Shown here piece after piece: positions 19,769-33,228 of a DNA stretch of 64,000 nt. The stretch is from an uncultured Chloroflexia bacterium (lineage in GTDB: Bacteria; Chloroflexota; Dehalococcoidia; DSTF01; WHTK01). The stretch is from NCBI GenBank assembly GCA_963732945.1, contig CAVTBL010000004.1, positions 273,864 to 337,863 on the forward strand, written 5' to 3'. Under the pieces are notes generated by a model. The model ran no database searches. It was not told the DNA's origin and saw only the letters and a list, made by a program, of their open reading frames with translations. The translations under genes were made by a program, and so were the position numbers. Within the stretch, counting starts at the first letter, position 1, and each line of letters starts with the position of its first letter.

Positions 19769-20500
19769 CTATGCGAGCGCTGCGGCCGGAAGATTGCCGA
19801 ACCGTGCTGTCCAGCTGCCGGGTGGTGAAGCCAGTGCCGTGAGTTGCTCAACGAAACGAAGGAAGTCCTGCCGAGGCATCCGCTCGGCGCCCAGACTCAG
19901 CAAGTGTGGGTTCTCGACTTGGGCGTCGATGAGGGGGAAGTCCCACTCGGAGAGCCTGCGTGCCAGGCCCGCCAGCGCGACCTTCGAGCCGCCGGACTCG
20001 GCGCTGAACATGCTCTCGCCGAAGAACATGTGGCCAATCGCAACGCCGTAGATGCCGCCGACGAGCCGCTCGCGATCGTAGACCTCTACCGAGTGCGCGC
20101 TGCCCTGGGAATGAAGCGCCAGATACGCCTCTTGCATCTCCCGGGTTATCCAGGTGCCGTTCTGTCCCGTTCTCGGTATGGCCGCGCAGGCTTCGATGAC
20201 GTCTCGAAACGCCGTGTCAGCGCGGACCGTCCAGGTAGAGCTTCGCAGGCTGCGCCGAAATCGACTCGGTAGGCTGAAGGCGTCCGTGCGGAACACGACG
20301 CGAGGATCGGGTGACCACCAGAGGATCGGTTGGCCTTCGGAGTACCACGGGAAGATGCCGTTTCGGTAGGCGTTCAGGAGCCGAGCCGGCGACAGGTCGC
20401 CGCCCGCCGCCAGCAGCCCGTCCGGCCAGCGCATCGCCGACTCCGGAGGCGGGAACGGGGCGCATGGATCGTCCGGCAGTAGATACAAACGCCGATTCAT
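19769..20500 (-). CDS. aat: Leucyl/phenylalanyl-tRNA--protein transferase
   Basis: It has LLNAYRNGIFPW, ILWWSPDPR, TWIT.EM..AY..LH..G.AHSVE and GG.YG...G..FFGESMFS, the characteristic Aat motifs. Confidence 0.85.
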   Translation of the reverse strand: MNRRLYLLPDDPCAPFPPPESAMRWPDGLLAAGGDLSPARLLNAYRNGIFPWYSEGQPILWWSPDPRVVFRTDAFSLPSRFRRSLRSSTWTVRADTAFRDVIEACAAIPRTGQNGTWITREMQEAYLALHSQGSAHSVEVYDRERLVGGIYGVAIGHMFFGESMFSAESGGSKVALAGLARRLSEWDFPLIDAQVENPHLLSLGAERMPRQDFLRFVEQLTALASPPGSWTARFGNLPAAALA

Positions 20501-20653
20501 GACACAAGCCTAACCTGCCATGCCCAGTGGCGGTGAGCGCCAGCAATCCAGATCGAGAGACCTCGGATGAGCGTTGGCGCGTGGGTCACGCGCCGCCGAC
20601 TGCGGTGCGCCGCAGCTCTTCAGGTGAAGTGGAAGCGCGTCTGGACGGCGAAC

Positions 20654-22195
20654 CTAGTGCTTCAGGCCCGCGTCGCCGGTGTTCGGCGGCGTGATGCAGA
20701 CGTTGTTGCCGATCGGGATACACGCTATCGGTGCGCCGCTGCTCGAGGTCGCGCCGCCGGTTGTGCTCGTCGGGTTCGGGCAGGTCGCGTGCAGAATAAC
20801 GGAGCCGAACTTGTCGCCCGAGGCCGCCGTAACCTTCACGTCGCCCTGGACCGCTCCCACGATGTACTTCACGTTGAGCACGCCGTTGACCGTCGGCGCC
20901 GAAAGCGTGTTGAGTGCCACGTTGGTGCCGTCCTGGTACGAGCCGTCCGGGTTGAGGAACTGGCCGTTCGTCGCCAGGAAGTTGACCACCGTGTTGTCGG
21001 CAACGACCTGGACCTTCGAGTCGCGTACGCTGGCGCCGATGAACACCGTCTCGCCGCAGGTCACCGCGGTCGACGACGCGTTGAGGTCGAGCAGACCGGG
21101 CTGCACCGAGCTGTTCACGTTGGGGCCGGGGCAGAACTGCTGCACCGTCACCACGGCCGCGTCGAAGGTGCGCTCCTGCGTGCCGTCGAGCGTTCCAACG
21201 CTGACCGTCACGTTAGAGGACGTCATGCCAGGCTGCAGCGTCAGGGTCGCGATGCCGGATTCGTTGTTCGCGTCGTTAGGCTGGACCACCAGCAGACCAA
21301 CGTCCGTGGCGAAGTGGAAGCCGAGGCCCGCCACGACGTGACCGTTGGGGTCGCGACCCGAGGCCGTGATCGTGGAGGTGCCGCCGCACTCGATGACGTT
21401 AGGGCTCGCCGTGACGACGACCGAGACATTGGCCTCTCCGGCGAAGCTGCCGCACGCCAGCGAGACGTCCACGGTCGCCGTTTTCACCGCCTTGTCCACC
21501 GGGTCCGCGATCGAGGCCGTGACCTTTGCGGTCGTCTGGTTCGGTCCCAGGGTTAGGGTTGCCGTGTTGTTGGTCGTCTGAGTCAGCAGGCCGCCCGTGG
21601 TCGAGAAGCTGAAGGCCGCGCCGTTGAGGACGTTGCCGACCTGGTCGAAGACGGTCGCGGTGATCGTGGACGTGCCGCCCTGGCACGGCAGGAGGTTGGG
21701 GCTCGCCGACACCGTGACCTGGCCGCCGCCGACGAACTGATTGCCGCCGCCGCTACTCGCCGCGATGCACTGGATGTTCACCGAGGTTACGTCCGCCTCA
21801 CCGGGCTCGGCCGTCACCGTAACGATGCCGTTCGTCGAGCAGGTAACCGTGAGGCGCACCAGAATCGAGCCGATGTTGTCCTCTTCCACGGTGACAATGT
21901 TGCTGGCCGGATCCGAGTCGGTGCAGGACGGGTTGCACGAAACGAGGTCGAGGGTTCCGGAGGCGTTGCTCGCGCCGCCATCGCCGTTGGCCGCAGCGAT
22001 CGTTGTGGATTCAGTGGTGTCTCCGGCGAGGTTCAAATTGACCACGATGATCGTCGAATTTCCGGAGTTGACGCTGGTCGAGTTCGGTACGAGAGGCGGG
22101 ACGACCGTGGCGTTTGCCGCCGTGGATGCGAACGACATTGCGACGACAACCAGCGCAGCTACGGCGGTCGAAATGAGTAGTGGTTTTTTCCGCAT
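20654..22195 (-). CDS. Secreted protein with several bacterial Ig-like (Big_1/invasin-type) domains
   Basis: It has a signal peptide (MRKKPLLISTAVAALVVVAMSFASTAANA). Repeated modules of about 90 aa follow, such as VTASPNVIECGGTSTITASGRDPNGHVVAGLGFHFAT...GIATLTL. I moved the start to 22195, the first Met with a signal peptide. Confidence 0.65.
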   Translation of the reverse strand: MRKKPLLISTAVAALVVVAMSFASTAANATVVPPLVPNSTSVNSGNSTIIVVNLNLAGDTTESTTIAAANGDGGASNASGTLDLVSCNPSCTDSDPASNIVTVEEDNIGSILVRLTVTCSTNGIVTVTAEPGEADVTSVNIQCIAASSGGGNQFVGGGQVTVSASPNLLPCQGGTSTITATVFDQVGNVLNGAAFSFSTTGGLLTQTTNNTATLTLGPNQTTAKVTASIADPVDKAVKTATVDVSLACGSFAGEANVSVVVTASPNVIECGGTSTITASGRDPNGHVVAGLGFHFATDVGLLVVQPNDANNESGIATLTLQPGMTSSNVTVSVGTLDGTQERTFDAAVVTVQQFCPGPNVNSSVQPGLLDLNASSTAVTCGETVFIGASVRDSKVQVVADNTVVNFLATNGQFLNPDGSYQDGTNVALNTLSAPTVNGVLNVKYIVGAVQGDVKVTAASGDKFGSVILHATCPNPTSTTGGATSSSGAPIACIPIGNNVCITPPNTGDAGLKH

Positions 22196-22541
22196 TGCCA
22201 ACCCCTCGTCCTTGAACACGGTCAGCCAGGCCGGATCCCAAATGGGATCCTTCCCGTGGACCGTACGCTTGGGGGTTTGCATCGACGAGCAGCAGTGAGC
22301 GGGGACCCTAGCCGGCCTCGCTCGAGACGTCAAACCCCGCCACCAGCCCGGGCATGCGGGAGTGCCTGGGCTGCCCGATCTACTAACGAAGTCGCATGCT
22401 AAAGAGTTAACGTCCAAACGTCCAGCTTATGCACCTCGAGTTTCGTCAGGAGAGGACGAGAGCAAAGCCACGGTCGACACGCTAAGGAATTTTCGAAGCA
22501 GGCCGACAATTCTGCAGGTGTAATCGAGTTACTGCAGGACG

Positions 22542-22754
22542 GTGATTTGCATGAGCAGCATGAGCATCGCATGTGTCGTAGCGTTGGGCACGGCAATTGG
22601 CCTGGTTCTGGCGCTGCCTGAAGCTGAGCGACTGGATATGGCAGCCGCTGCCTACATCACGATCTTCTTCAACGCGCTTTTCGCGGCCTGGGCGTTCGCT
22701 ATCGGGCGAAGCATCGTGAGAATGGTCCGGGAGTCTGGCGAAACCCGGCGCTAA
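22542..22754 (+). CDS. Possible small two-helix membrane protein
   Basis: This rests on ORF and hydrophobicity only; the RBS is weak. Confidence 0.3.
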   Translation: MICMSSMSIACVVALGTAIGLVLALPEAERLDMAAAAYITIFFNALFAAWAFAIGRSIVRMVRESGETRR

Positions 22755-22769
22755 TTTCGTGACGAAGCT

Positions 22770-24221
22770 TTAGCTCACTTTGAGACGATAAGGACCGATC
22801 GTTATCTCGTCGCCCGGGCTGAGCGTGGCCCAGTCGACCGGCTTCCCCTCGATCAGCGACGGTACCGAGTCCGACAGCTGGTGGAAGATCAGCTTCCCGT
22901 CCCGGCTCCAGATTCGCGCGTGCACGCCGGCGACGCGGCCCTGCGGGTCTTCGAGGCGAAGCTGGTTCGACGCGTCGGTGCCGATGGTCGCGGGCTCGCG
23001 GCCTACGTGCGCGGTCTGTCGCGTGTCCGGGCCCTCGACCTCGATCGAGACGTCGGGCGCGGCCGGCGCCGGTTCGCCCGGAGCCGAGGTCTGCAGCTCG
23101 CCGACGGCGCCGGTGCTCAGCACGGCAAGCTGAGCCGAGAGGCGCCTCGTCTTGAGGCGGTTGTAGCTGAAGGCGCCGCCGCCGACCACAACCCCGACGA
23201 CCAGGACCGCGAGAAGGATCAGCAGGACGGAGCTGCTGTTGCTCGATTCCGTGCCCGTGGCTGCAGGCGCCGGCGCGGCTCCGGCCTCTGTGTCCGCGCC
23301 CGCCACTCCCGTGACGCTGCGAAGCGTCTTGTAGTCGCTGCTGACCTGCAGGGTCCCGGCCGAGCTGTAGATGCGCAGGTCGAGGCTGCGGTCGGCAACG
23401 TTGGGGTCGGCGGTCGAGTTCAGCGTGACCACGTACTGGCTCTTGAGCAGCTGAGCGACCTGCTTGTAGAGGGTCGTCACGTCTGCGCTGGAAGGAGCCT
23501 GGAGGAAGGCGCCGCCGGATTGCGCGGCCAGCGAGGTCAGGAAGGCGCGGTCGATGTCCTGGCCGAGGCCGATGACGTAGAACGGTATGTGGGCGTTCGC
23601 GGCCAGCCTCAGCGCCTGGTCTGAGCTCAGGTCCGAGTGGCCGCCGTCGTCCTTGCCGTCCGAGAGAAACACGATGGCCTTGCGCGGCAGCGTCGCAGCC
23701 TGCGCCGTCTTGATCGAGGTTTCGACGGCCGAGTACAACGCCGTGTCGCCGCGCGCGATCAGCCCGTCGAGCGCCGATACCGCCGCGTTGTGGTCCGCGG
23801 TCAGGCCTTCGACGAGGTTGGCCTGGCTGGCGAAGTTCAGCACGGCAACCTGGTCGGCGGGTTGGAGGTTCTTGACGAAGTCGCTTATCGCCGATTTCGC
23901 GGCGGCCAGCGGCGGTCCGAACATGCTGCCGCTCGTGTCGACCGTCATGATCACGCCGAGGCCGAGGTTCTGGTTCGAGACGGTCTGCAGCTTCGTCACC
24001 GCCGCCGATGCGCCCGTCTCCTGCGCCGTCACGTCGGCCGGCTGCAGGTCGACGACGGGCTGCCCGGTCGAGTCGACCAGCGTCAGCACGGCCTCGACCG
24101 TGGGGAAGGCGCTGTCGTCGACGCTGACGATCTGCGCCACCGGCGCGGCGCCACGCACCGTGGTCCCGCCGGATATGAGGGCAAAGACCAACACGACAAT
24201 AGTGGCTAACGCTGTACGCAC
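22770..24221 (-). CDS. Bitopic protein: signal/anchor, extracytoplasmic VWA domain, TM helix, cytoplasmic FHA domain
   Basis: A GTG start follows GGGAGA. The VWA MIDAS-like motif is DTSGSM...S...GDTALY...FLSDGKDD. The TM segment is VLLILLAVLVVGVVVGGGAF. The C-terminal FHA pattern is TIGTDASNQLRLEDP..VAGVHARI...LIFHQLSD..PSLIEGKPV. Confidence 0.8.
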   Translation of the reverse strand: MRTALATIVVLVFALISGGTTVRGAAPVAQIVSVDDSAFPTVEAVLTLVDSTGQPVVDLQPADVTAQETGASAAVTKLQTVSNQNLGLGVIMTVDTSGSMFGPPLAAAKSAISDFVKNLQPADQVAVLNFASQANLVEGLTADHNAAVSALDGLIARGDTALYSAVETSIKTAQAATLPRKAIVFLSDGKDDGGHSDLSSDQALRLAANAHIPFYVIGLGQDIDRAFLTSLAAQSGGAFLQAPSSADVTTLYKQVAQLLKSQYVVTLNSTADPNVADRSLDLRIYSSAGTLQVSSDYKTLRSVTGVAGADTEAGAAPAPAATGTESSNSSSVLLILLAVLVVGVVVGGGAFSYNRLKTRRLSAQLAVLSTGAVGELQTSAPGEPAPAAPDVSIEVEGPDTRQTAHVGREPATIGTDASNQLRLEDPQGRVAGVHARIWSRDGKLIFHQLSDSVPSLIEGKPVDWATLSPGDEITIGPYRLKVS

Positions 24222-24343
24222 CGCAGGTTCTCCCGAATGGAGTAAACGATTTCGAGAGTCAAGAATAACGGAAACACGCGAAAAAGCCAGAAGAAATTCC
24301 GTCCCGCATTCTGGCGAGACGGGACCGTTGGGGAGAGAACACG

Positions 24344-24520
24344 ATGAACCAGGCTACAGACGAATCTGAGACGCAGGCGCCCGCAACGGCCCAGATAATC
24401 GACATCGAGACGCTGCGGCAGCATCGGCGCCTCGTCGAAGCGCGCGAGTGGCTGCGAGCCCAGCTGCCCTGGCAGCGCGCCGACGCCCGCCGGATCAGCG
24501 ACCGCATCCGCGCCGCCTGA
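24344..24520 (+). CDS. Possible 58-aa Arg-rich helical protein (below the ORF-track cutoff)
   Basis: The ATG follows GGGGAGAG. GC3 is high and there are no internal stops. The translation is MNQATDESETQAPATAQIIDIETLRQHRRLVEAREWLRAQLPWQRADARRISDRIRAA. Confidence 0.35.
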   Translation: MNQATDESETQAPATAQIIDIETLRQHRRLVEAREWLRAQLPWQRADARRISDRIRAA

Positions 24521-24743
24521 GTTATCCTTCGACGGCGGCAATTTTCGCCGCCCGAATATCCTCAAATTGCGCACAGATCCCGACGGCGCAGCCCTGCCCG
24601 CCAGCCTCCAAAGAAATTTTAGACCAGGCCGACGAATTATGGCCTCTGCGGAAGATATGTATTAAACTCGCGCGACTTAGCGCTCGAAACTCGAACAGGC
24701 ATAGATGGCCTTGTTACAGTTTCTAGATGGGCGCGCCTCTCTC

Positions 24744-24772
24744 TTGACATTTATGTAATCCTGCCTTATCAC
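24744..24772 (+). promoter_or_regulatory. Candidate promoter TTGACA-N17-TATCAC about 280 nt upstream of flp
   Basis: Read directly, in the lower-GC stretch 24575-25050. Confidence 0.35.
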
Positions 24773-25049
24773 TTATGTCTGCCTCTGTTCGTTTGCGCAG
24801 TGGTCATCGTGACACAACTGCCGGACGTAATAGAGGCGATATGGCCCTTTGCTCCCCGCCTCGTTAGGGCTGTAATACTTCCGACGGTTTCCGCGTTTAG
24901 CGGACAGAAGGCAATTTGCCTGCGTCGGGAAAGTTACAGAGAAGGAGGCGCCCTGGAAGCAAGGATGCAAGCGGGATTAAGCCTGCTCTTTGCCGGAGTT
25001 TCCGGCACTCCAACCACACCCCGTATTTAGTCATGGAGGACCTGCAAGG

Positions 25050-25223
25050 ATGCAGTTCATCAATTTCATCAAGGATCGAATCTCCGCTCTGTTCACGGAA
25101 GAGTCCGGCCAGGACGGCATCGAGTACCTGCTCGTCATCGGCGGCATCAGCGTGGCCATCATCGTCGCAGCGTTGCCGCGCTCGTTACTGGTGGCTGCCC
25201 GGCGTCGTCACCGGCGTCTGTGA
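25050..25223 (+). CDS. flp: Flp-family type IVb prepilin
   Basis: GGAGGA lies 9 nt before the ATG. It has the Flp motif G|QDGIEYLLVIGGISVAIIV. The Arg-rich C-terminal tail is atypical, so the 3' end may carry an indel. Confidence 0.75.
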   Translation: MQFINFIKDRISALFTEESGQDGIEYLLVIGGISVAIIVAALPRSLLVAARRRHRRL

Positions 25224-25294
25224 AGCAGCTCATCGACGGTATCATACTCCGGCGTCACCGCTTAGCCTAAGCTGGTCGACTAGGGCGGGACTGG

Positions 25295-25525
25295 CTGTTC
25301 AGCCCGCTCAAGGCTACCCGCGCCCTCTTGACGCGACTGCTTCGCTGATCGAGGACGAGACGGTCAGGCCGGCATCGAGTACCTGCTCGCGATGGGCGCT
25401 ATCGCAGTCGTGGTCGCCGGCAGCTCTTGATCGGCGGCTTCGAGGCCATCGTGCGCGGCGTGCTACCGGTGCTCTGCGACGCGGTCGATCCCCTACGCGG
25501 CGGCGGTAACTGTATCAGCTTTTAG
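25295..25525 (+). pseudogene. flp: Second Flp-like prepilin, reading frame broken at least twice
   Basis: GQAGIEYLLAMGAIAVVVAG is readable in one frame. The leader (...LIEDET) and tail (LLIGGFEAIVRGVLPVLCDAVDPL...) are in other frames. There is no clean start codon. Confidence 0.5.
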
Positions 25526-25558: not shown

Positions 25559-26025
25559 ATGATGAGACTTACGAGCATTCGACGACCGGTGCGACGCGGC
25601 ATCAAGGACGAGAAGGGCCAGGCGGCCATCGAGCTGCTGCTCGTCTTTCCCGTCTTCATCGTTGTCGTGCTGCTCGCCGTCGACTTCGGTCTCTGGATGT
25701 ATCAGACCGTAAGCGTCGCCAGCGCGGTTCGCGACGGCGCGCGCTACGCCGCGGTCAACTGCGGCGGCAACCTCCTGCACCGCGAGCGACATCGCAACTT
25801 ACACGGCCAATCACTCCAGCGGCAGCATCGACGCCGCTCATGTTCACGTGAGCTGGGCGGCGAGTCGGCCCGCCGCGGCCGGCGCCAAGGGCAGCCAGGT
25901 CGTCGTTGAGGCCTGCGCGCCCTACTCGATGATCTTCGCCCCGGTCACGTTCTCGACGGGGCTTGCCTCCAGCGACAACATGCGCGTGGAGCAGTCGTTC
26001 TCCTCCACGGCAGGCGGCTCAGTCA
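25559..26025 (+). pseudogene. tadE: TadE-like pseudopilin (pair 2); one frame break and no stop before tadG
   Basis: It has KGQAAIELLLVFPVFIVVVLLAVDFG...VRDGARYAAV. The frame breaks near 25775. The continuation ends ...DNMRVE, as in other TadE copies, but runs on in frame into the next gene. Confidence 0.65.
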
Positions 26026-27421: not shown

Positions 27422-28234
27422 ATGACGAGCATCAGTCAGGCACAACGCGGAGGGCGCGCCAACAAACGGCAACTCTGGATTGCTGCCGCTCTCGGTCTGC
27501 TCGCGGCGGTCCTCGTCATCGTGTTCCTCAGCAACGCGGGCAGCAAGGACAACAACAGCAGCACCTCCGTAGCGACGGAGGGCGTCATCGTTGCGTCCCA
27601 GCCGATCGCTATCGGCACGCAGATCACCGCCGATATGCTGACCACCAAACAGGTTGCAACCTCGGCTATCGCTTCCGACGCCATACGCGACAAGACTCTG
27701 GCCATCGGGCAGGTCGCCCGCTATCCGATCTCGCGTGGCGACACCCTGAGCACGGGCGAGCTGGTCGCGGCGCCGCAGGTCAAGTCGCTGTCGTTCGAGA
27801 TCCCGCCGGGCCTGCGCGGCATGACCATCCCGGTCTCGATTAACAACACGCCCTCGGCGCTGATCGCCCCCGGCGACTTCGTCGACGTGATCGTCAGCGC
27901 GGACGCCGTGCTGCTCAACGGCAACGTCGTGACGCTGCCGGGCAACAACCAGCAGCAGGCTCGAGGCTCGGCGACGCTCCTGCAGAACGTGCAGGTGCTC
28001 TCCGTCGACCGCAACTTCGCCGACACCGGCGTCGTCTACGACTCCTCGGTCCGCGGTACGCCGCCCGATGCGAAGGACAGCGTCTCCTTCGTCACCCTGG
28101 CTGTAACTCCCGATCAAGCGCAGCTTCTCTGGCTGGCGCAGGACAGCGGCAAGCTCACCATCGTGCTGCGTGCGTTCGGCGATGACAAAGTCGTCACCCT
28201 CACGCCGGACGTCGAGCCGCTGCAGCTTCCTTAG
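27422..28234 (+). CDS. cpaB: Flp pilus assembly protein CpaB/RcpC (SAF domain)
   Basis: It has an N-terminal TM segment, then VIVASQPIAIGTQITADML and a RcpC-type C-terminal region. GGAGGG precedes the ATG. Confidence 0.8.
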   Translation: MTSISQAQRGGRANKRQLWIAAALGLLAAVLVIVFLSNAGSKDNNSSTSVATEGVIVASQPIAIGTQITADMLTTKQVATSAIASDAIRDKTLAIGQVARYPISRGDTLSTGELVAAPQVKSLSFEIPPGLRGMTIPVSINNTPSALIAPGDFVDVIVSADAVLLNGNVVTLPGNNQQQARGSATLLQNVQVLSVDRNFADTGVVYDSSVRGTPPDAKDSVSFVTLAVTPDQAQLLWLAQDSGKLTIVLRAFGDDKVVTLTPDVEPLQLP

Positions 28235-28260: not shown

Positions 28261-29484
28261 ATGGCCGCGAAATCACGAGTACTGATCATCGACGAAGACC
28301 TCGATAGCCGCGTCGAGACGCGCAAGGCGATTCAGCGCGCGGGCCTGGACAACGCCGGCGAGGTCGGCTTCGGCGCCGAGGCCGTGACCACCGCCAGCGA
28401 AGTGCGCCCCGACGTGCTGCTGATCGCCGTCGAGGAGCCGGTCACGCGCGCGCTGGAGACGGTCGACTCGCTGGCCAACGTGCTGCCCGAGACGCCGATC
28501 ATCTTCTACGCATCCAGCACGGACGCGGACTCGGTACGCCGCGCCGTGATCTACGGCGCCCGCGACTACCTGATCAAGCCGCTGCAGGCCGAGGGCCTCA
28601 AGCAGGCCGTGATCCGCGCCCTCGAGTTCGAAGAGAAACGCCACATGCGCCAGGCGGGGCAGCTCGCATCGGCGCCGGTGCGCGGCACCGTGATCACGGT
28701 CGCGGGCGCCAAGGGCGGCATCGGCAAGTCGGTGATCGCGACCAACCTCGCGCTCGCGTTGCGACAGAAGACGCAGGCCAGCGTCGTCATCGTCGACGCC
28801 GACACGCACTTCGGCGACATCGCGACAATGCTCGACGTGACGCCCACGGTCACGGCCGCCGATCTGCTGCGCGACCTGCCGAAGCTGGACCGCAACAAGA
28901 TCCACGACTACCTCACCGAGGCGCCGCTCGGCGTCTGGGTCCTCGCCGGCTCTCGCGACGAGGACAACGTCTGGGAGGCGGCCGACAAGGACAGCGGTAA
29001 GAAGATCGTCGAGCTCCTGTCGCTCTCGCACGACTTCATCATCGTCGACACGTCCGGTGCCATGGACAGCTTCGTGCGTGAGGTGATCAGCGCCTCGACG
29101 CTGGTGCTCCTGGTTACGACAGGCGAGGTCTCGAGCGTGCGTGATACACGGTCCGCGCTCAACCGCTTGAAGAGTTGGTCGGTGCCGGCCGAGAAGGTCA
29201 AGATTCTCCTCAACCGCGGCGCCCGGGCCGACGGCTTCCAGGTCGCCGACATCGAGAAGAGCCTCGACCGCCCGATCTTCTGGGAGCTACCGCGAGACCG
29301 CGAGGTGGGACGCTCGATTCAGCTCGGCCGCCCCGTCGTTATCGAGAAGCCGGGCACGGCTGCCGCGCGCAACATCACTGCACTGGCTGAGGCGATTGGT
29401 GGCAACGTCAGGACCGCGACGTCCAACGGCCACCGCCCAGGGCTGATGTCTCGCTTCAGCAGAACGAAGCAGGTGGTGGCATGA
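28261..29484 (+). CDS. tadZ: TadZ/CpaE: atypical receiver domain fused to a ParA/MinD-type ATPase
   Basis: It has a REC-like N-terminus (VLIIDED) with Ala at the expected acceptor-Asp position (LLIAVEEP). The deviant Walker A is AGAKGGIGKS. Confidence 0.85.
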   Translation: MAAKSRVLIIDEDLDSRVETRKAIQRAGLDNAGEVGFGAEAVTTASEVRPDVLLIAVEEPVTRALETVDSLANVLPETPIIFYASSTDADSVRRAVIYGARDYLIKPLQAEGLKQAVIRALEFEEKRHMRQAGQLASAPVRGTVITVAGAKGGIGKSVIATNLALALRQKTQASVVIVDADTHFGDIATMLDVTPTVTAADLLRDLPKLDRNKIHDYLTEAPLGVWVLAGSRDEDNVWEAADKDSGKKIVELLSLSHDFIIVDTSGAMDSFVREVISASTLVLLVTTGEVSSVRDTRSALNRLKSWSVPAEKVKILLNRGARADGFQVADIEKSLDRPIFWELPRDREVGRSIQLGRPVVIEKPGTAAARNITALAEAIGGNVRTATSNGHRPGLMSRFSRTKQVVA

Positions 29485-30788
29485 CGTCCTGGCAGACCAT
29501 CCTCCCGCGGGTAGAGCCCGACAGCACCAGCGAGATCGAGGAGGCCGTACACCAGCGTGTGATCCGCGCCGTCAACGATTCCGAGATTCGCGGCCTCGGC
29601 AAGGAGCAGGCGCGGCCCATCGTCGCGGACGCCACGCGGCGTCTCCTCACGGAAGAGTACCCGGCCGTCGTCGGCGACTCGAAGGACGAGCTCGTCACGC
29701 GTATCGTCGATGAGATAACGGGTCTGGGGCCGATCGAAGGGCTGCTGCGCGACCCGAGCGTATCCGAAGTCATGGTCAACGCGCCGGACGAGGTCTACTT
29801 CGAGCGCGACGGCATCATCCACGAGTCCGATGTGCACTTCAGAAACGATGCGCACGTCATGCGCATCGTCGAGCGAATCACGTCGGCGCTCGGTCGTCAT
29901 GTCGACGAAGCGTCGCCTATGGTCGACGCGCGCCTCGAGGACGGCTCACGTGTCAACGTAATCATTCCGCCGCTGGTGCCGCGCAGCGCCGTCCTGACGA
30001 TTCGCAAGTTCCGCGCCGACATGTTCTCCATGAACGATCTCGTGCACGCCGGCACGCTGTCGCGGCAGATGGCGGACTTCCTTGGCGGCTGCGTCCAGGC
30101 GAAGCTCAACATCGTCGTCTCCGGTGGCACCGGTACCGGTAAGACAACGCTGCTGAACGCCCTTTCAGCCTTCATCCCGATGCGAGAACGCATCATCAGC
30201 ATCGAGGACCCGCTCGAGATGCAGCTTCAGCAGAAGCACGTCATCGCCATGGAAGCGCGTCCGCCTTCCGTCGAAGGCGCCGGCGAGGTGACGCAGCGCA
30301 TGCTCCTGCGCAACGCGCTGCGCATGCGCCCGGACCGCATCATCGTCGGCGAGGTTCGTGGCTCCGAGGCCTTCGACATGATGCAGGCGATGAACACCGG
30401 TCACGAGGGCTCGCTGACCACGGTTCACGCCAACTCACCGAGAGACGCCCTCGCACGCATCGAGAACATGGTCCTGATGGCCGGCTTCGAGTTGCCCGTG
30501 GCGGTGATTCGCGAGCAGATGGCGTCGGCGCTCCACGTCGTGATCCATCTCTCCCGCCTCTTCGATGGCAGCCGTAGGGTCGTCAACATCAGCGAAGTGT
30601 CCGGCATGGAAGGCAACGTGATCACGATGCAGGACATTTTCCTGTTCCATCAGGACGACATCACGTCGGACGGGCGCGTCGTTGGCGATCTGAGGCCGAC
30701 GGGTTTGCGTCCGCACTTCGTCGACCGTCTCAAGTCATTCGGTATCGAGTTCAGCGACGACATCTTCGGTGTCGCGAGGTGGACCTGA
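29481..30788 (+). CDS. tadA: TadA/CpaF secretion ATPase
   Basis: It has Walker A ([10 protein letters not shown]), Asp/His boxes and [12 protein letters not shown]. An ATGA overlap links it to tadZ. Confidence 0.9.
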
Positions 30789-30789
30789 C

Positions 30790-31746
30790 GTGGATCCTTC
30801 TATCCTCATAGCCGGTGCCGCCGCGGCGGGTGCTGTGTTCGTCGCAACGCTTACGCTGCAACGCAACGCCAGCACGAGCCGCGAGCTGATTCAGTCCCGG
30901 ATAAGCTCCGATGGCTCGCCGAACATCGCACAGCCGCGGCTCCAGCTTGCGATCCCACGCATGGCTTCACTGTCGCAGCGGGGTCAGCGACTTGCGCGCG
31001 ACCTCGATAGGGCCGGTGTAGCGCTGACCGTGAGCGAGTACATGATGGTGCGGACCGCCGTCGCGGTGTTGGGCTCCATCGTTGCCCTCCTGCTGGCCTC
31101 CTCATTCTCCGCGGGCATGGCAGTCAAAATCGGTGCGGCCGTCTTCGGCTTCATCTTTGGCTACTGGTTACCGGGGCAGTACATCAACGGTCGTAAGGCA
31201 CGCAGATTGAAGCGCATCGAAGATGAGCTGGTCGAGGTCATGGTCTCGATGGCGAAGTCGCTGCGCGCCGGGGTCGGCCTGACGCAGGCTCTCGAGTATG
31301 CCGGGCGCGATGCTCCCGACCCCCTGGGCAGCGAGCTCCTGCGCGTGGTGCGCGAGCTACAGCTCGGTGCCGATGTTGAAAACGTGTTCGAGGAGATGAA
31401 TGCTCGCATCGCCAGCCCCGACCTCGAGATCGCCTCGGCGGCGATCATTATTCAGCGCAGAGTCGGCGGCAACCTCTCCGAAGTCCTCACTAATGTGGCG
31501 AACACGATTCGAGAGCGAAGAGCGATTCGTAACGAGCTGAACGCGATTACCGCGAAGCAGCGCCTGCAGGGCAACGCCTCGGCTTTGATTCCTGTATTTG
31601 TGGCCGTCTTCTTTTTCTTCGTGAACCATGACACGGCCAAGCTGCTGTTCACCACGACGGCCGGCAACATCGCGCTCGCGGTCGGCATCTTCTTCGAGGT
31701 CGCCGGCCTGTGGATGGTGCGCCGCTTTGGAGCAATCGAGGTCTGA
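30790..31746 (+). CDS. tadB: TadB (T2SS-F-like inner-membrane platform protein)
   Basis: It has a T2SSF domain pattern (LVEVMVSMAKSLRAGVGLTQAL) and terminal TM helices. The GTG at 30790 follows AGGTGGA. Confidence 0.8.
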   Translation: MDPSILIAGAAAAGAVFVATLTLQRNASTSRELIQSRISSDGSPNIAQPRLQLAIPRMASLSQRGQRLARDLDRAGVALTVSEYMMVRTAVAVLGSIVALLLASSFSAGMAVKIGAAVFGFIFGYWLPGQYINGRKARRLKRIEDELVEVMVSMAKSLRAGVGLTQALEYAGRDAPDPLGSELLRVVRELQLGADVENVFEEMNARIASPDLEIASAAIIIQRRVGGNLSEVLTNVANTIRERRAIRNELNAITAKQRLQGNASALIPVFVAVFFFFVNHDTAKLLFTTTAGNIALAVGIFFEVAGLWMVRRFGAIEV

Positions 31747-31747
31747 T

Positions 31748-32665
31748 ATGCCGCTGCTGATTGGACTCCTGACCTTTGTCGCCGTGATGCTGCTCGTCAG
31801 CTACGTGGCCCAGCCTCGTCAGGATGAGGTTCGGCGCCGCATCCTGGCGGGCGGCTCCGGCGGTGCAGAATCGAGCGAGCCGTCCAGTGCGTCATTCGGC
31901 AAGAGGCTGATCCGCCCGATGTTCAGCTGGCTCGGCTCCGGCTTCGGCAAGCTGCTGCCCCAACACATGATTCAGAGCCTCGAGACCACGCTGGTCCAGG
32001 CCGGCGAGCCCATGGCGCTGTCGAGCTTTCTCGCAATCTGGGGACTGGTCGCATCGTTGGCAGCGCTGGCCGTCTTCTGGCTCCTTACCGCGCAGGCCGA
32101 CTGGGGCTTCGGGCGCCTGTTCGTTTTGAGCGCCCTGATTCTCGTGTATTCGATTGGCACGCCGTACCTGCTGCTCAGGCGCCGCGCCGGCAAGCGCAAG
32201 AAGCGCATCGAGCGGGCCCTGCCGGATGCCCTCGATCTGCTCCTCACGTGCATCGAAGCCGGTCTGGGCGTGGACGCTGCCTTCGCGCTCGTGGCGCAGA
32301 GGTCGACGGGTCCGCTGGCCGAGGTGCTTACGGAATACCTGAGACTCGTCGGGTTCGGGCAGTCACGCCGCGACGCTCTCGAATACATCAGCCAGCGCTC
32401 CGGCGCTCCCGGGCTGAATCGTCTGGCCGCGGTAGTGGCGCAGGCCACGGCTGTCGGAACCACCATGGGCGACGTGCTGCGCGTTCAGGCAGCCGAGCTG
32501 CGTGAGGCTCGCCGCCTCAAGGCGCAGGAGGCGGCCGCAAAAGCACCGATCTGGATGACGATTCCGCTGGCGCTGTGCTTCATGCCGGCCATGGGCGCCG
32601 TCATCGTGGTGCCTTCCATTCTTCATCTCTTGAATTCGATAAAGGACCTGGGGTTAAGAGCATGA
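31748..32665 (+). CDS. tadC: TadC (T2SS-F-like platform protein)
   Basis: It has LPDALDLLLTCIEAGLGVDAAF plus TM helices. The ATG lies 1 nt after the tadB stop. Confidence 0.8.
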   Translation: MPLLIGLLTFVAVMLLVSYVAQPRQDEVRRRILAGGSGGAESSEPSSASFGKRLIRPMFSWLGSGFGKLLPQHMIQSLETTLVQAGEPMALSSFLAIWGLVASLAALAVFWLLTAQADWGFGRLFVLSALILVYSIGTPYLLLRRRAGKRKKRIERALPDALDLLLTCIEAGLGVDAAFALVAQRSTGPLAEVLTEYLRLVGFGQSRRDALEYISQRSGAPGLNRLAAVVAQATAVGTTMGDVLRVQAAELREARRLKAQEAAAKAPIWMTIPLALCFMPAMGAVIVVPSILHLLNSIKDLGLRA

Positions 32666-33228
32666 CTTACGCAACTGAAGCCAGAAGCATGACCGGGCGA
32701 GACTCGACGTTCTACGCCTATCTGGCGGTTCCAGTACTGGAGCTGCTCGCACTCGTCGTCATGACGTTCCTGCCCGATCGCGTTGCCGCGGCGCTGCTCA
32801 CCGAAGTCACGGTTGTGTTGCTGCTGTACCTGGGGCTGATCGACTTTCTCACCCTCAAAGTGCCGAACCTGATCGTGTACCCATCGATTGCGTTCGTGCT
32901 GATCGGCACGGCGCTGGTCAAGATGAGCGCGCTCGATAATGCGCTGCTTGGTGGAGGGGCGCTGCTCGGCATCATGTTCGTTCTCGCAATCATCGGCCGC
33001 GGTTCGATGGGCATGGGCGACGTCAAGTTCGCCTGCCTGCTGGGCTGCGCGCTGGGACCGATTGTTGGCGTGCTCGCGCTGGCGTCCGGCTTCGTCGTCG
33101 GCGCAGTAAGCGCGATCGTGCTGCTGGTTCTGCACCTGAAAGGCCGAAAGGATTCGGTGCCGCTCACGCCTTATCTCGCGATAGGCGGGATCGTCTGGAT
33201 CCTGCTCATCGGCACGCTGGTGAAGTAG
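32662..33228 (+). CDS. tadV: A24-family prepilin peptidase (TadV/CpaA type, no methyltransferase domain)
   Basis: The two catalytic Asp contexts are LIDFLTLKVPN and GMGDVKF. It is polytopic and has an ATGA overlap with tadC. Confidence 0.85.
   Translation: MTYATEARSMTGRDSTFYAYLAVPVLELLALVVMTFLPDRVAAALLTEVTVVLLLYLGLIDFLTLKVPNLIVYPSIAFVLIGTALVKMSALDNALLGGGALLGIMFVLAIIGRGSMGMGDVKFACLLGCALGPIVGVLALASGFVVGAVSAIVLLVLHLKGRKDSVPLTPYLAIGGIVWILLIGTLVK

Follow-up and report, generated by a model that had tools for sequence, protein, structure and literature searches.

A bitopic VWA–FHA protein family that accompanies secretin-less tad loci in Dehalococcoidia

Why is a membrane-spanning protein, whose VWA domain lies outside the cell and whose forkhead-associated (FHA) fold lies inside it, encoded next to a Tad pilus locus, and does it belong to the pilus machine? 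This question is raised by a 64,000-nucleotide stretch of DNA from an uncultured Chloroflexia bacterium (class Dehalococcoidia in GTDB; contig CAVTBL010000004.1 of assembly GCA_963732945.1), the whole of which we refer to as the window. Tad pili power adhesion and biofilm formation as well as the uptake of DNA and predation. To our knowledge, what is understood of Tad machines comes almost entirely from diderm models, and we know of no account of how their outer parts are replaced, or how outside events are coupled to the inside, in monoderm-type cells. A first-pass annotation made from the sequence alone had described the protein, here called P0001, as an extracellular ligand- or metal-binding module wired to a cytoplasmic phosphothreonine reader, and had proposed that it might act as an outside-in sensor or as a scaffold of the tad machine. 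Here we find that P0001 belongs to a large family with an outside VWA domain and an inside FHA fold that is dedicated to secretin-less tad loci and comprises at least 150 clusters at 50% identity, making it a conserved and previously undescribed Tad companion in uncultured soil Chloroflexota. With moderate confidence, we take P0001 to be an accessory subunit that is dedicated to the Tad/Flp machine of Dehalococcoidia, a secretin-less (monoderm-type) machine, and that works independently of phosphorylation.

A protein family that travels with tad loci

The gene for P0001 had been reported as divergent from the flp promoter region, and this is the case: 830 bp separate it from the divergent flp/tad operon, and the tad locus of the window contains no secretin gene (Table 1). 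To assess linkage across the class, 301 Dehalococcoidia genomes were searched with a family profile and with the Pfam model RcpC (CpaB). The family gave 63 strong matches in 42 genomes, 41 of which have RcpC/cpaB. Within 12 kb of cpaB lie 47 of the 63 members, or 47 of the 49 with RcpC on the same contig, compared to a chance expectation of ~2% for such proximity (two loci in a 3-Mb genome); two members were demonstrably distant from cpaB. Both tad loci of the genome under study carry their own copy, one VWA–transmembrane (TM)–FHA paralogue each. The conserved linkage with tad loci on which the first-pass annotation had let its finding depend was therefore recovered at the level of the class.

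Metagenomic homologues with 31–89% identity to P0001 gave a similar picture, with five of six genomic contexts linked to tad genes. At one locus (L001, 44% identity) the gene is divergent from a complete tad operon, and at another (L002) it is again divergent, in the same synteny as in the window. Elsewhere, it lies within the operon between tadC and the prepilin peptidase gene (L004), beside DUF192 and the prepilin peptidase gene (L005), or upstream and on the same strand, followed by an extracytoplasmic function (ECF) sigma factor gene, flp and the operon (L006); in L003, no tad gene was present in the 10 kb available. At a further locus (L033) the gene sits within the structural operon, after tadC. 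Gene order is thus variable: the gene may be divergent or convergent, may lie upstream in the same orientation or may come directly after tadC. This points to selection on proximity and not to inherited synteny, and linkage is kept down to ~30% identity and through rearrangements. Together, these data show that members of the family accompany tad loci, with a single copy at each. When clustered at 50% identity, the best 150 clusters each matched with E < 1e-108 and were nearly all full-length, falling at 470–520 or 610–720 amino acids (aa).

A bitopic protein with a complete MIDAS outside

The domain order given in the first-pass annotation (a signal peptide or anchor, a VWA domain with a MIDAS (metal-ion-dependent adhesion site), a TM helix and, at the C-terminus, an FHA domain) was borne out by Pfam, by an AlphaFold2 (AF2) model and by residue alignment. 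The Pfam VWA model PF00092 matched residues 91–253 (59.6 bits, E = 6e-16) and the MIDAS is complete, with D95, S97, S99, T160 and D188 invariant in 20 homologues. The FHA model PF00498 matched residues 412–476 with 22.7 bits, above its gathering cut-off of 20.7. An AF2 model built from 20 homologues (mean predicted local distance difference test score (pLDDT) 81) contains, in order, a signal or anchor helix, a VWA domain flanked by a beta-sandwich, an Ala/Pro linker, a long TM helix and a C-terminal sandwich. In this model, residues 28–80 and 262–298 pair as one beta-sandwich beside the VWA domain, and the C-terminal sandwich comprises 11 strands across residues 391–482 (pLDDT ~85–94). Comparison of the ectodomain by Foldseek aligned 314–350 columns to ITIH1, 4fx5 and ArnB. 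Because the hydrophobic core at residues 332–351 precedes the positively charged YNRLKTRRL, the positive-inside rule places the VWA domain outside and the FHA fold inside. P0001 is shown by these results to be bitopic, with the VWA/MIDAS domain and beta-sandwich outside, a flexible linker and one TM helix, and the FHA fold in the cytoplasm; the Ala/Pro linker is likely a wall-to-membrane spacer.

An ectodomain of this kind could also belong to an independent surface adhesin or a generic membrane VWA protein, BatA-like or wall-anchored, that merely neighbours tad genes. The same ectodomain type does occur in Anaerolineae, in TM-anchored multi-immunoglobulin (Ig) surface proteins that have neither FHA nor tad (L016, L018 and L020), and the ectodomain of P0001 nearly reaches the generic VWA family TIGR03436 (79.2 bits compared to a cut-off of 81.25; NCBIfam). 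Nonetheless, we consider this explanation highly improbable, given that tad linkage is maintained over ~30–90% identity and through rearrangements with one paralogue per locus, that the conserved cytoplasmic FHA fold is not needed by a pure adhesin, and that the NCBIfam model for BatA gives only 33.7 bits against a cut-off of 380.

An FHA fold without the phosphothreonine-binding residues

The first-pass annotation had made its case dependent on an FHA region detectable by hidden Markov models, and detection extended beyond the Pfam match. A family profile of the C-terminal 105 residues from 16 members matched solved FHA structures in the PDB, led by FhaA (2lc1, E = 3.7e-11) and including GarA, OdhI and Ki-67; as these are bona fide FHA structures, the fold assignment is secure. 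In canonical FHA domains such as Rad53 FHA1, FhaA and GarA, the phosphate is held by G-R, S-x-x-H and N residues. We aligned 18 family domains, including the paralogue on contig C3 of the same genome and a DnaJ–FHA protein of a related tad operon, with FhaA and GarA. At the canonical positions, the family retains Gly in 18/18, Arg in 1/18, Ser in 0/18, His in 10/18 and Asn in 0/18 domains. P0001 itself has IG-T in place of canonical G-R, V-A-G-V-H in place of S-R-x-H and V at the Asn of S/T-x-N, and it carries the family-specific residues W438 and GDE-x-x-IGPYRL.

We also looked for a kinase that such a reader would serve. As stated in the first-pass annotation, the window encodes no Ser/Thr kinase. 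A cognate kinase elsewhere in the genome, which the annotation had suggested seeking, did not appear either: no Hanks-type kinase exceeded the PF00069 cut-off in the 3.17-Mb assembly (83% complete), in which the sole protein-kinase-like open reading frame (ORF) was a RIO1 gene (C4:147380-148204; PF01163, E = 3e-34). Hanks kinases were present in 22 of 41 genomes of the same order and lacking from the other 19. The family persists in at least eight genomes without such a kinase (G058, G153, G283, G257, G082, G101, G019 and G296), which are 93–98% complete by estimate and one of which (G153) is a complete, single-contig genome. A six-frame PF00498 search of the genome under study found no FHA domain at E ≤ 1e-3, but it says little on other FHA genes because P0001 itself was missed as well; a tblastn search with the FHA region matched only the C3 paralogue.

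Phosphothreonine reading by P0001, as claimed in the first-pass annotation, is not supported, because the Arg, Ser and Asn residues are replaced throughout the tad-linked family and because the family persists in kinase-less genomes. That P0001 is nonetheless a genuine reader in a Ser/Thr kinase pathway, with its kinase encoded elsewhere, is in our judgement extremely unlikely. The FHA fold is real, Hanks kinases occur in about half of the order, kinase/FHA modules are found in Tad loci of other phyla (the Kil system, PMC8460266), and two relatives from Anaerolineae metagenome-assembled genomes (MAGs) with a VWA–Ig–TM–FHA layout (L037:2428-4323 and L047:9938-11833) retain a near-canonical V-S-R-N-H. 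Against this stand the residue replacements and the lack of a Hanks kinase both here, with RIO1 as the only kinase-like gene, and in at least eight family-carrying relatives. The available flanks of the two Anaerolineae loci contain no tad genes, and proteins of this type may preserve an ancestral form of the architecture that was phospho-dependent.

The same degenerate FHA type was found in a soluble 441-aa protein of genome G153 (L009:17688-19013), which has two J domains and is encoded directly after tadC. At the G153 locus, a frame of ~107 aa between the VWA–TM–FHA gene and tadE also matches the family profile, in its FHA part only. By analogy, the FHA domain of P0001 looks like a phosphorylation-independent FHA-fold docking module, of which SctD is the classic example. 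The fold thus seems to be used here without phosphothreonine chemistry, and we caution that an 'FHA' annotation in this family does not imply kinase signalling.

Fusion of the same ectodomain to TadB in Actinomycetota

To place the ectodomain more broadly, we examined the best 80 loci related to the family among GTDB species-representative genomes. The full VWA–TM–FHA protein was present in eight of these loci, all from Dehalococcoidia or 'Chloroflexia' MAGs; four of its eight contexts were tad-linked and three of the other four were on contigs too short for linkage to be judged. In 39 of the 80 loci, mostly from Actinomycetota, we found the order TadZ–TadA–[VWA–TadB]–TadC, and many of the weaker matches of the first homologue search had likewise been proteins with VWA and T2SSF domains. 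Pfam places both domains in one chain, with VWA at residues ~80–256 and T2SSF at ~455–620. Carriers of the fusion include the cultured Actinospongicola halichondriae (strain Hal317, L030:9977-11914) and Saccharothrix mutabilis (JCM 3380, L076). In the Actinospongicola fusion (645 aa), a signal peptide, a VWA domain that reads DVSGS and a beta-sandwich are joined through a linker and TM helix to a TadB domain; across residues 2–272 it is 30% identical to P0001 (E = 2e-25).

The fusions therefore share with P0001 a homologous ectodomain (signal peptide, beta-sandwich and VWA with MIDAS), the layout of linker and TM helix, and the tad context. They differ in the cytoplasmic part, which is the T2SSF platform domain in the fusions and the FHA fold in P0001. 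Because it is fused to TadB, the ectodomain is suggested to work at the platform, in an argument of the Rosetta-stone type, and the FHA fold of Dehalococcoidia would replace the covalent TadB link of Actinomycetota. Fusions in cultured actinomycetes tie the family to the platform itself, and they turn a vague 'sensor or scaffold' idea into one that can be tested experimentally in cultivable organisms.

Comparison with known systems

The closest likeness of the FHA fold is with SctD (YscD/PrgH/EscD), the inner-membrane ring protein of the type III secretion system (T3SS). Both are bitopic, belong with a trans-envelope machine and carry a cytoplasmic FHA fold without the phosphothreonine-binding residues, which serves SctD, and would serve P0001, as a docking surface; among FHA-type models, Yop-YscD_cpl (PF16697) scores highest for P0001 (25.8 bits, with relatives up to 32.2). 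However, the FHA fold is N-terminal in SctD and C-terminal in P0001, so that the topology is reversed, and the SctD ectodomain consists of ring-building motifs and not VWA. Membership in the SctD family was rejected: PF16697 scores remain below the cut-off of 33.2 and the window contains no T3SS genes.

FHA proteins also occur in or beside Tad clusters in the Kil system of Myxococcus (PMC8460266) and in Bdellovibrio (bioRxiv 10.64898/2026.07.08.737194), where they have been proposed to be signalling or assembly factors. Those systems differ in belonging to predatory diderms and having secretins, their FHA proteins are assumed to act with phosphorylation cascades, and none is described as a VWA–TM–FHA fusion. 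In Sulfolobus, the FHA protein ArnA and the vWA protein ArnB form a pair that controls another type IV filament, the archaellum (PMC6509490, PMC4858521), and the vWA domain and beta-sandwich of ArnB were among the top Foldseek matches of the P0001 ectodomain (8s05, E = 3e-15; 5a8j). ArnA and ArnB are two soluble cytoplasmic proteins whose interaction depends on phosphorylation by ArnC/ArnD, whereas P0001 is a single membrane-spanning chain with its VWA domain outside; ArnA and ArnB are, moreover, never encoded in type IV pilus loci (PMC4858521). A cytoplasmic module of the vWA–MoxR or ArnAB type, or a conflict system, was likewise rejected for P0001, as its VWA domain is extracytoplasmic, the genome yielded no Hanks kinase and no MoxR was found among the neighbours scanned.

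Extracytoplasmic VWA domains with a complete MIDAS and an association with Tad or type IV pili are known from TadG/CpaL, PilY1 and PilC1, for which roles in adhesion or mechanosensing have been proposed; vWA proteins of the TadG/CpaL type are proposed minor pilins (PMC12607857). The N-termini of these proteins resemble those of pilins, and incorporation into the fibre or its tip is presumed, whereas P0001 stays in the membrane, having a signal peptide, a TM anchor of its own and a cytoplasmic domain. Finally, TagH/Fha1 of the type VI secretion system, the gliding protein GltG and mycobacterial FhaB/FipA are FHA accessory proteins of envelope machines to which P0001 shows weak NCBIfam matches, all far below the cut-offs, so that membership was rejected (TagH, 33.6 bits compared to 120.25; GltG, 22.3 compared to 650; FhaB/FipA, 20 compared to 125); Fha1 and FipA further differ in acting through phosphothreonine. 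In the literature, we found no description of a VWA–TM–FHA protein in tad loci or of VWA–TadB fusions. The P0001 family is a variant of a known theme, that of FHA-fold accessory proteins of envelope machines, and the variant itself is new.

Proposed role in the Tad machine

As an accessory subunit of the Tad/Flp machine, P0001 would hold its ectodomain at the TadB/TadC platform, against the membrane's outer face, where the MIDAS metal may bind an acidic residue of the pilin, of a minor pilin, or of a wall or surface ligand. The degenerate FHA fold would serve as a constitutive protein–protein docking module, holding P0001 to a cytoplasmic part of the Tad machine (the cytoplasmic domains of TadB/C, TadZ or TadA). 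P0001 might in this way couple outside events at the base of the pilus to the inner motor, and the covalent VWA–TadB fusion might do the same in Actinomycetota. From the first-pass proposal, the notion of a tad accessory that acts as a scaffold or sensor is retained and the phosphothreonine reading is dropped; its scaffold alternative receives independent support from the TadB fusion of the same ectodomain.

Several observations weigh against this role. For fourteen of the 63 family members the contig carries no cpaB, so that linkage is unassessable, and a family member is found near only about one third of the class's RcpC matches; Dehalococcoidia tad loci therefore do not universally have the protein. 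On one complete chromosome (L019, OY969711.1) the gene lies 272 kb from cpaB and has an internal TGA stop. The P0001-type gene mostly forms a transcription unit by itself, placed either at the locus edge or divergently from the locus, which would suit a regulator equally. Lastly, the long paralogue, described below, is always directly followed by an ECF sigma factor gene, as seen in seven loci (L006, L010, L012, L013, L014, L015 and the C3 locus). The L019 chromosome is probably the same genome as G006:C1:1380656-1382033; it is the only clear case far from cpaB and possibly a decaying copy.

The position of the gene and the sigma factor genes bear on the main rival explanation, in which P0001 is an outside-in regulator: the ectodomain would sense a surface or wall ligand or the state of the pilus, and the FHA tail would hold or release a regulator and thereby control the transcription or assembly of tad. 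The most plausible candidates for this regulator are the ECF sigma factor encoded beside the long paralogue and TadZ's receiver domain. We regard this as possible, although unlikely. In addition to the sigma factor genes, it fits with P0001 being divergent from flp and monocistronic, the latter because conserved small ORFs on the opposite strand flank it on both sides, and with the regulation of another type IV filament by the ArnA/ArnB pair, whose vWA member resembles the ectodomain. However, the short form to which P0001 belongs has no adjacent sigma factor gene in five of six contexts (in the sixth, L001, it lies between the gene and tad), the VWA–TadB fusions put the ectodomain on the machine itself, and in L004 and L033 the gene is embedded in the structural operon after tadC. 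A small ORF that overlaps the end of the sigma factor gene in L006 and L010 could be the sigma factor's own anti-sigma, and an FHA–sigma interaction has no known precedent.

The long paralogue is represented in the genome by the C3 protein, a VWA (DTSGS)–Ig–TM–FHA chain with an extra Ig domain compared to P0001. It belongs to the second tad locus (C3:255937-267000), in which it is followed by genes for an ECF sigma factor, cpaB, tadZ, tadA, tadB, tadC and DUF192. This locus lacks a prepilin peptidase gene of its own; the only peptidase match of the genome is in the window. In the long paralogue of G153 (L010:3857-5728) the MIDAS reads N-V-S-G-S and not D-x-S-x-S, so metal binding may not be universal in the long form.

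Returning to an accessory subunit of the Tad machine, a wider and quite tentative extension, which we hold to be doubtful at present, is that the VWA/MIDAS and beta-sandwich ectodomain is a general, overlooked extracytoplasmic part of monoderm (secretin-less) Tad machines, fused to TadB in Actinomycetota and tethered in Dehalococcoidia by its own TM helix and a phosphorylation-blind FHA dock. At the base of the fibre, on the platform, its MIDAS metal would grip an acidic residue, either of Flp or of some minor pilin, to prime, gate or sense assembly and retraction. If true, it would form a new structural layer of the machine that replaces the roles of TadG-vWA or of outer-membrane parts in diderms.

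Neighbouring genes and other features of the locus

Coordinates of all features are collected in Table 1.

Table 1 Features of the P0001 locus and related sorting-motif ORFs. Positions are those of the window unless a contig (C) is named.
Feature	Position	Strand	Basis or remark
Secreted Ig-repeat protein, 513 aa, 4-5 Ig-like (invasin/Big_1-like) domains	20654..22195	(-)	AF2, Foldseek
Conserved 70-aa small membrane-protein ORF, two hydrophobic segments, convergent with P0001	22542..22754	(+)	89% identity L002, 37% L001
VWA-TM-FHA protein gene (P0001, 483 aa)	22770..24221	(-)	GTG start, GGGAG Shine-Dalgarno
Degenerate FHA-fold domain, residues 391-482	22776..23051	(-)	Pfam, family profile, AF2, residue alignment
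Positive cluster YNRLKTRRL after TM helix	23139-23165	(-)	R/K cluster conserved in homologues
TM helix, residues 332-351	23169..23228	(-)	Hydrophobic core, AF2 model
Disordered Ala/Pro/Gly/Ser linker, residues 301-330	23232..23321	(-)	pLDDT <50; length and sequence vary among homologues
Ectodomain beta-sandwich, C-terminal strands, residues 262-298	23328..23438	(-)	AF2 model
VWA domain, residues 88-260	23442..23960	(-)	PF00092, invariant MIDAS residues
MIDAS D95-T-S97-G-S99	23925-23939	(-)	Site completed by T160 and D188
N-terminal beta strands, residues 28-80	23982..24140	(-)	AF2 model DSSP, pLDDT ~90
Signal peptide/N-terminal anchor, residues 1-25, hydrophobic core 4-19, VRG/AA	24147..24221	(-)	AF2 helix 2-17
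Conserved 58-aa ORF, soluble, between P0001 and flp, divergent from P0001	24344..24520	(+)	32% identity L001, 24% L003, invariant E-W...P
Secretin-less tad locus, divergent from P0001	25051..33228	(+)	
flp	25051-25224	(+)	
tadE	25559-25909	(+)	
tadG-like	from 25848	(+)	
cpaB	27422-28234	(+)	
tadZ (REC-ParA)	28261-29484	(+)	
tadA	29481-30788	(+)	
tadB	30769-31746	(+)	
tadC	31628-32665	(+)	
Prepilin peptidase	32575-33228	(+)	
Full sorting signals	C17:9768, C4:829615, C4:393074, C6:48345, C17:88139, C4:263354		
Tail-less motif ORFs besides the window	C10:173800, C3:130658, C4:814065, C10:32481, C6:242200, C10:76927		

A scan of positions 20400-25200 for promoters and terminators was uninformative, with one promoter-like site compared to 0.6 expected and two terminator-like sites compared to 3.2 expected. 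Downstream of flp, a second flp-like frame (25340-25430, (+); ending in ...GQAGIEYLLAMGAIAVVVAGSS-stop) has no obvious start and is perhaps a second pilin gene that has decayed or shifted frame.

On the same strand as the P0001 gene lies the gene of a secreted Ig-repeat protein, whose true start is the ATG at 22195 (MRKKP...), as in homologues. The first-pass annotation had called it a multi-Big_1 secreted protein following P0001. Big_1 (PF02369) gives only 19 bits compared to a cut-off of 34.9, although some homologues carry precomputed PF02369 matches. Searching PDB sequences with a profile of the Ig-repeat family gave no match, and a fold comparison was therefore used: the AF2 model (pLDDT 70) is a string of Ig-like sandwiches that Foldseek matched to invasin (1cwv, E = 3e-12) and other multi-Ig rods. 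The shared strand was thus confirmed and the protein reads as secreted and, by its model, Ig-like, while the Big_1 assignment stayed below threshold and the gene proved to be neither co-transcribed with P0001 nor a conserved partner. A common operon was rejected because a conserved small gene on the opposite strand separates the two. Among the 301 class genomes, the Ig-repeat protein has relatives in three, each belonging to the same taxonomic family as the genome under study. Its gene adjoins the VWA–TM–FHA gene in the window, L002, L005 and L007 and the prepilin peptidase gene in L005 and L008, and it is not adjacent to the VWA–TM–FHA gene in G019 and G170; a 536-aa ORF at the G153 locus was rejected as a homologue, not being homologous. 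We read the Ig-repeat protein as an occasional neighbour and not as a conserved or core partner; it may be an adhesin or a cargo that belongs to the same surface programme.

The Ig-repeat protein ends in CIPIGNNVCITPPNTGDAGLKH, with PPNTG at 20675-20689, and has no membrane anchor. In six other ORFs of the genome, PPNTGDAGL precedes a hydrophobic helix and an RR tail, and [IV][TS]PP[NS]TG[DS][AG]GL looks like the organism's sortase-type sorting motif. The Ig-repeat protein itself was rejected as a sortase substrate, as it ends in ...ITPPNTGDAGLKH-stop with no hydrophobic helix or positive tail. Seven ORFs, including this one and its 80%-identical paralogue, stop 5–8 residues past the motif without an anchor. 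Homologues from metagenomes share this tail-less ending, often in the doubled form ITPPNTG...ITPPSTGSAGLK. One of the five sortase genes of the genome (C6:49117) lies ~0.7 kb from an ORF with the full signal.

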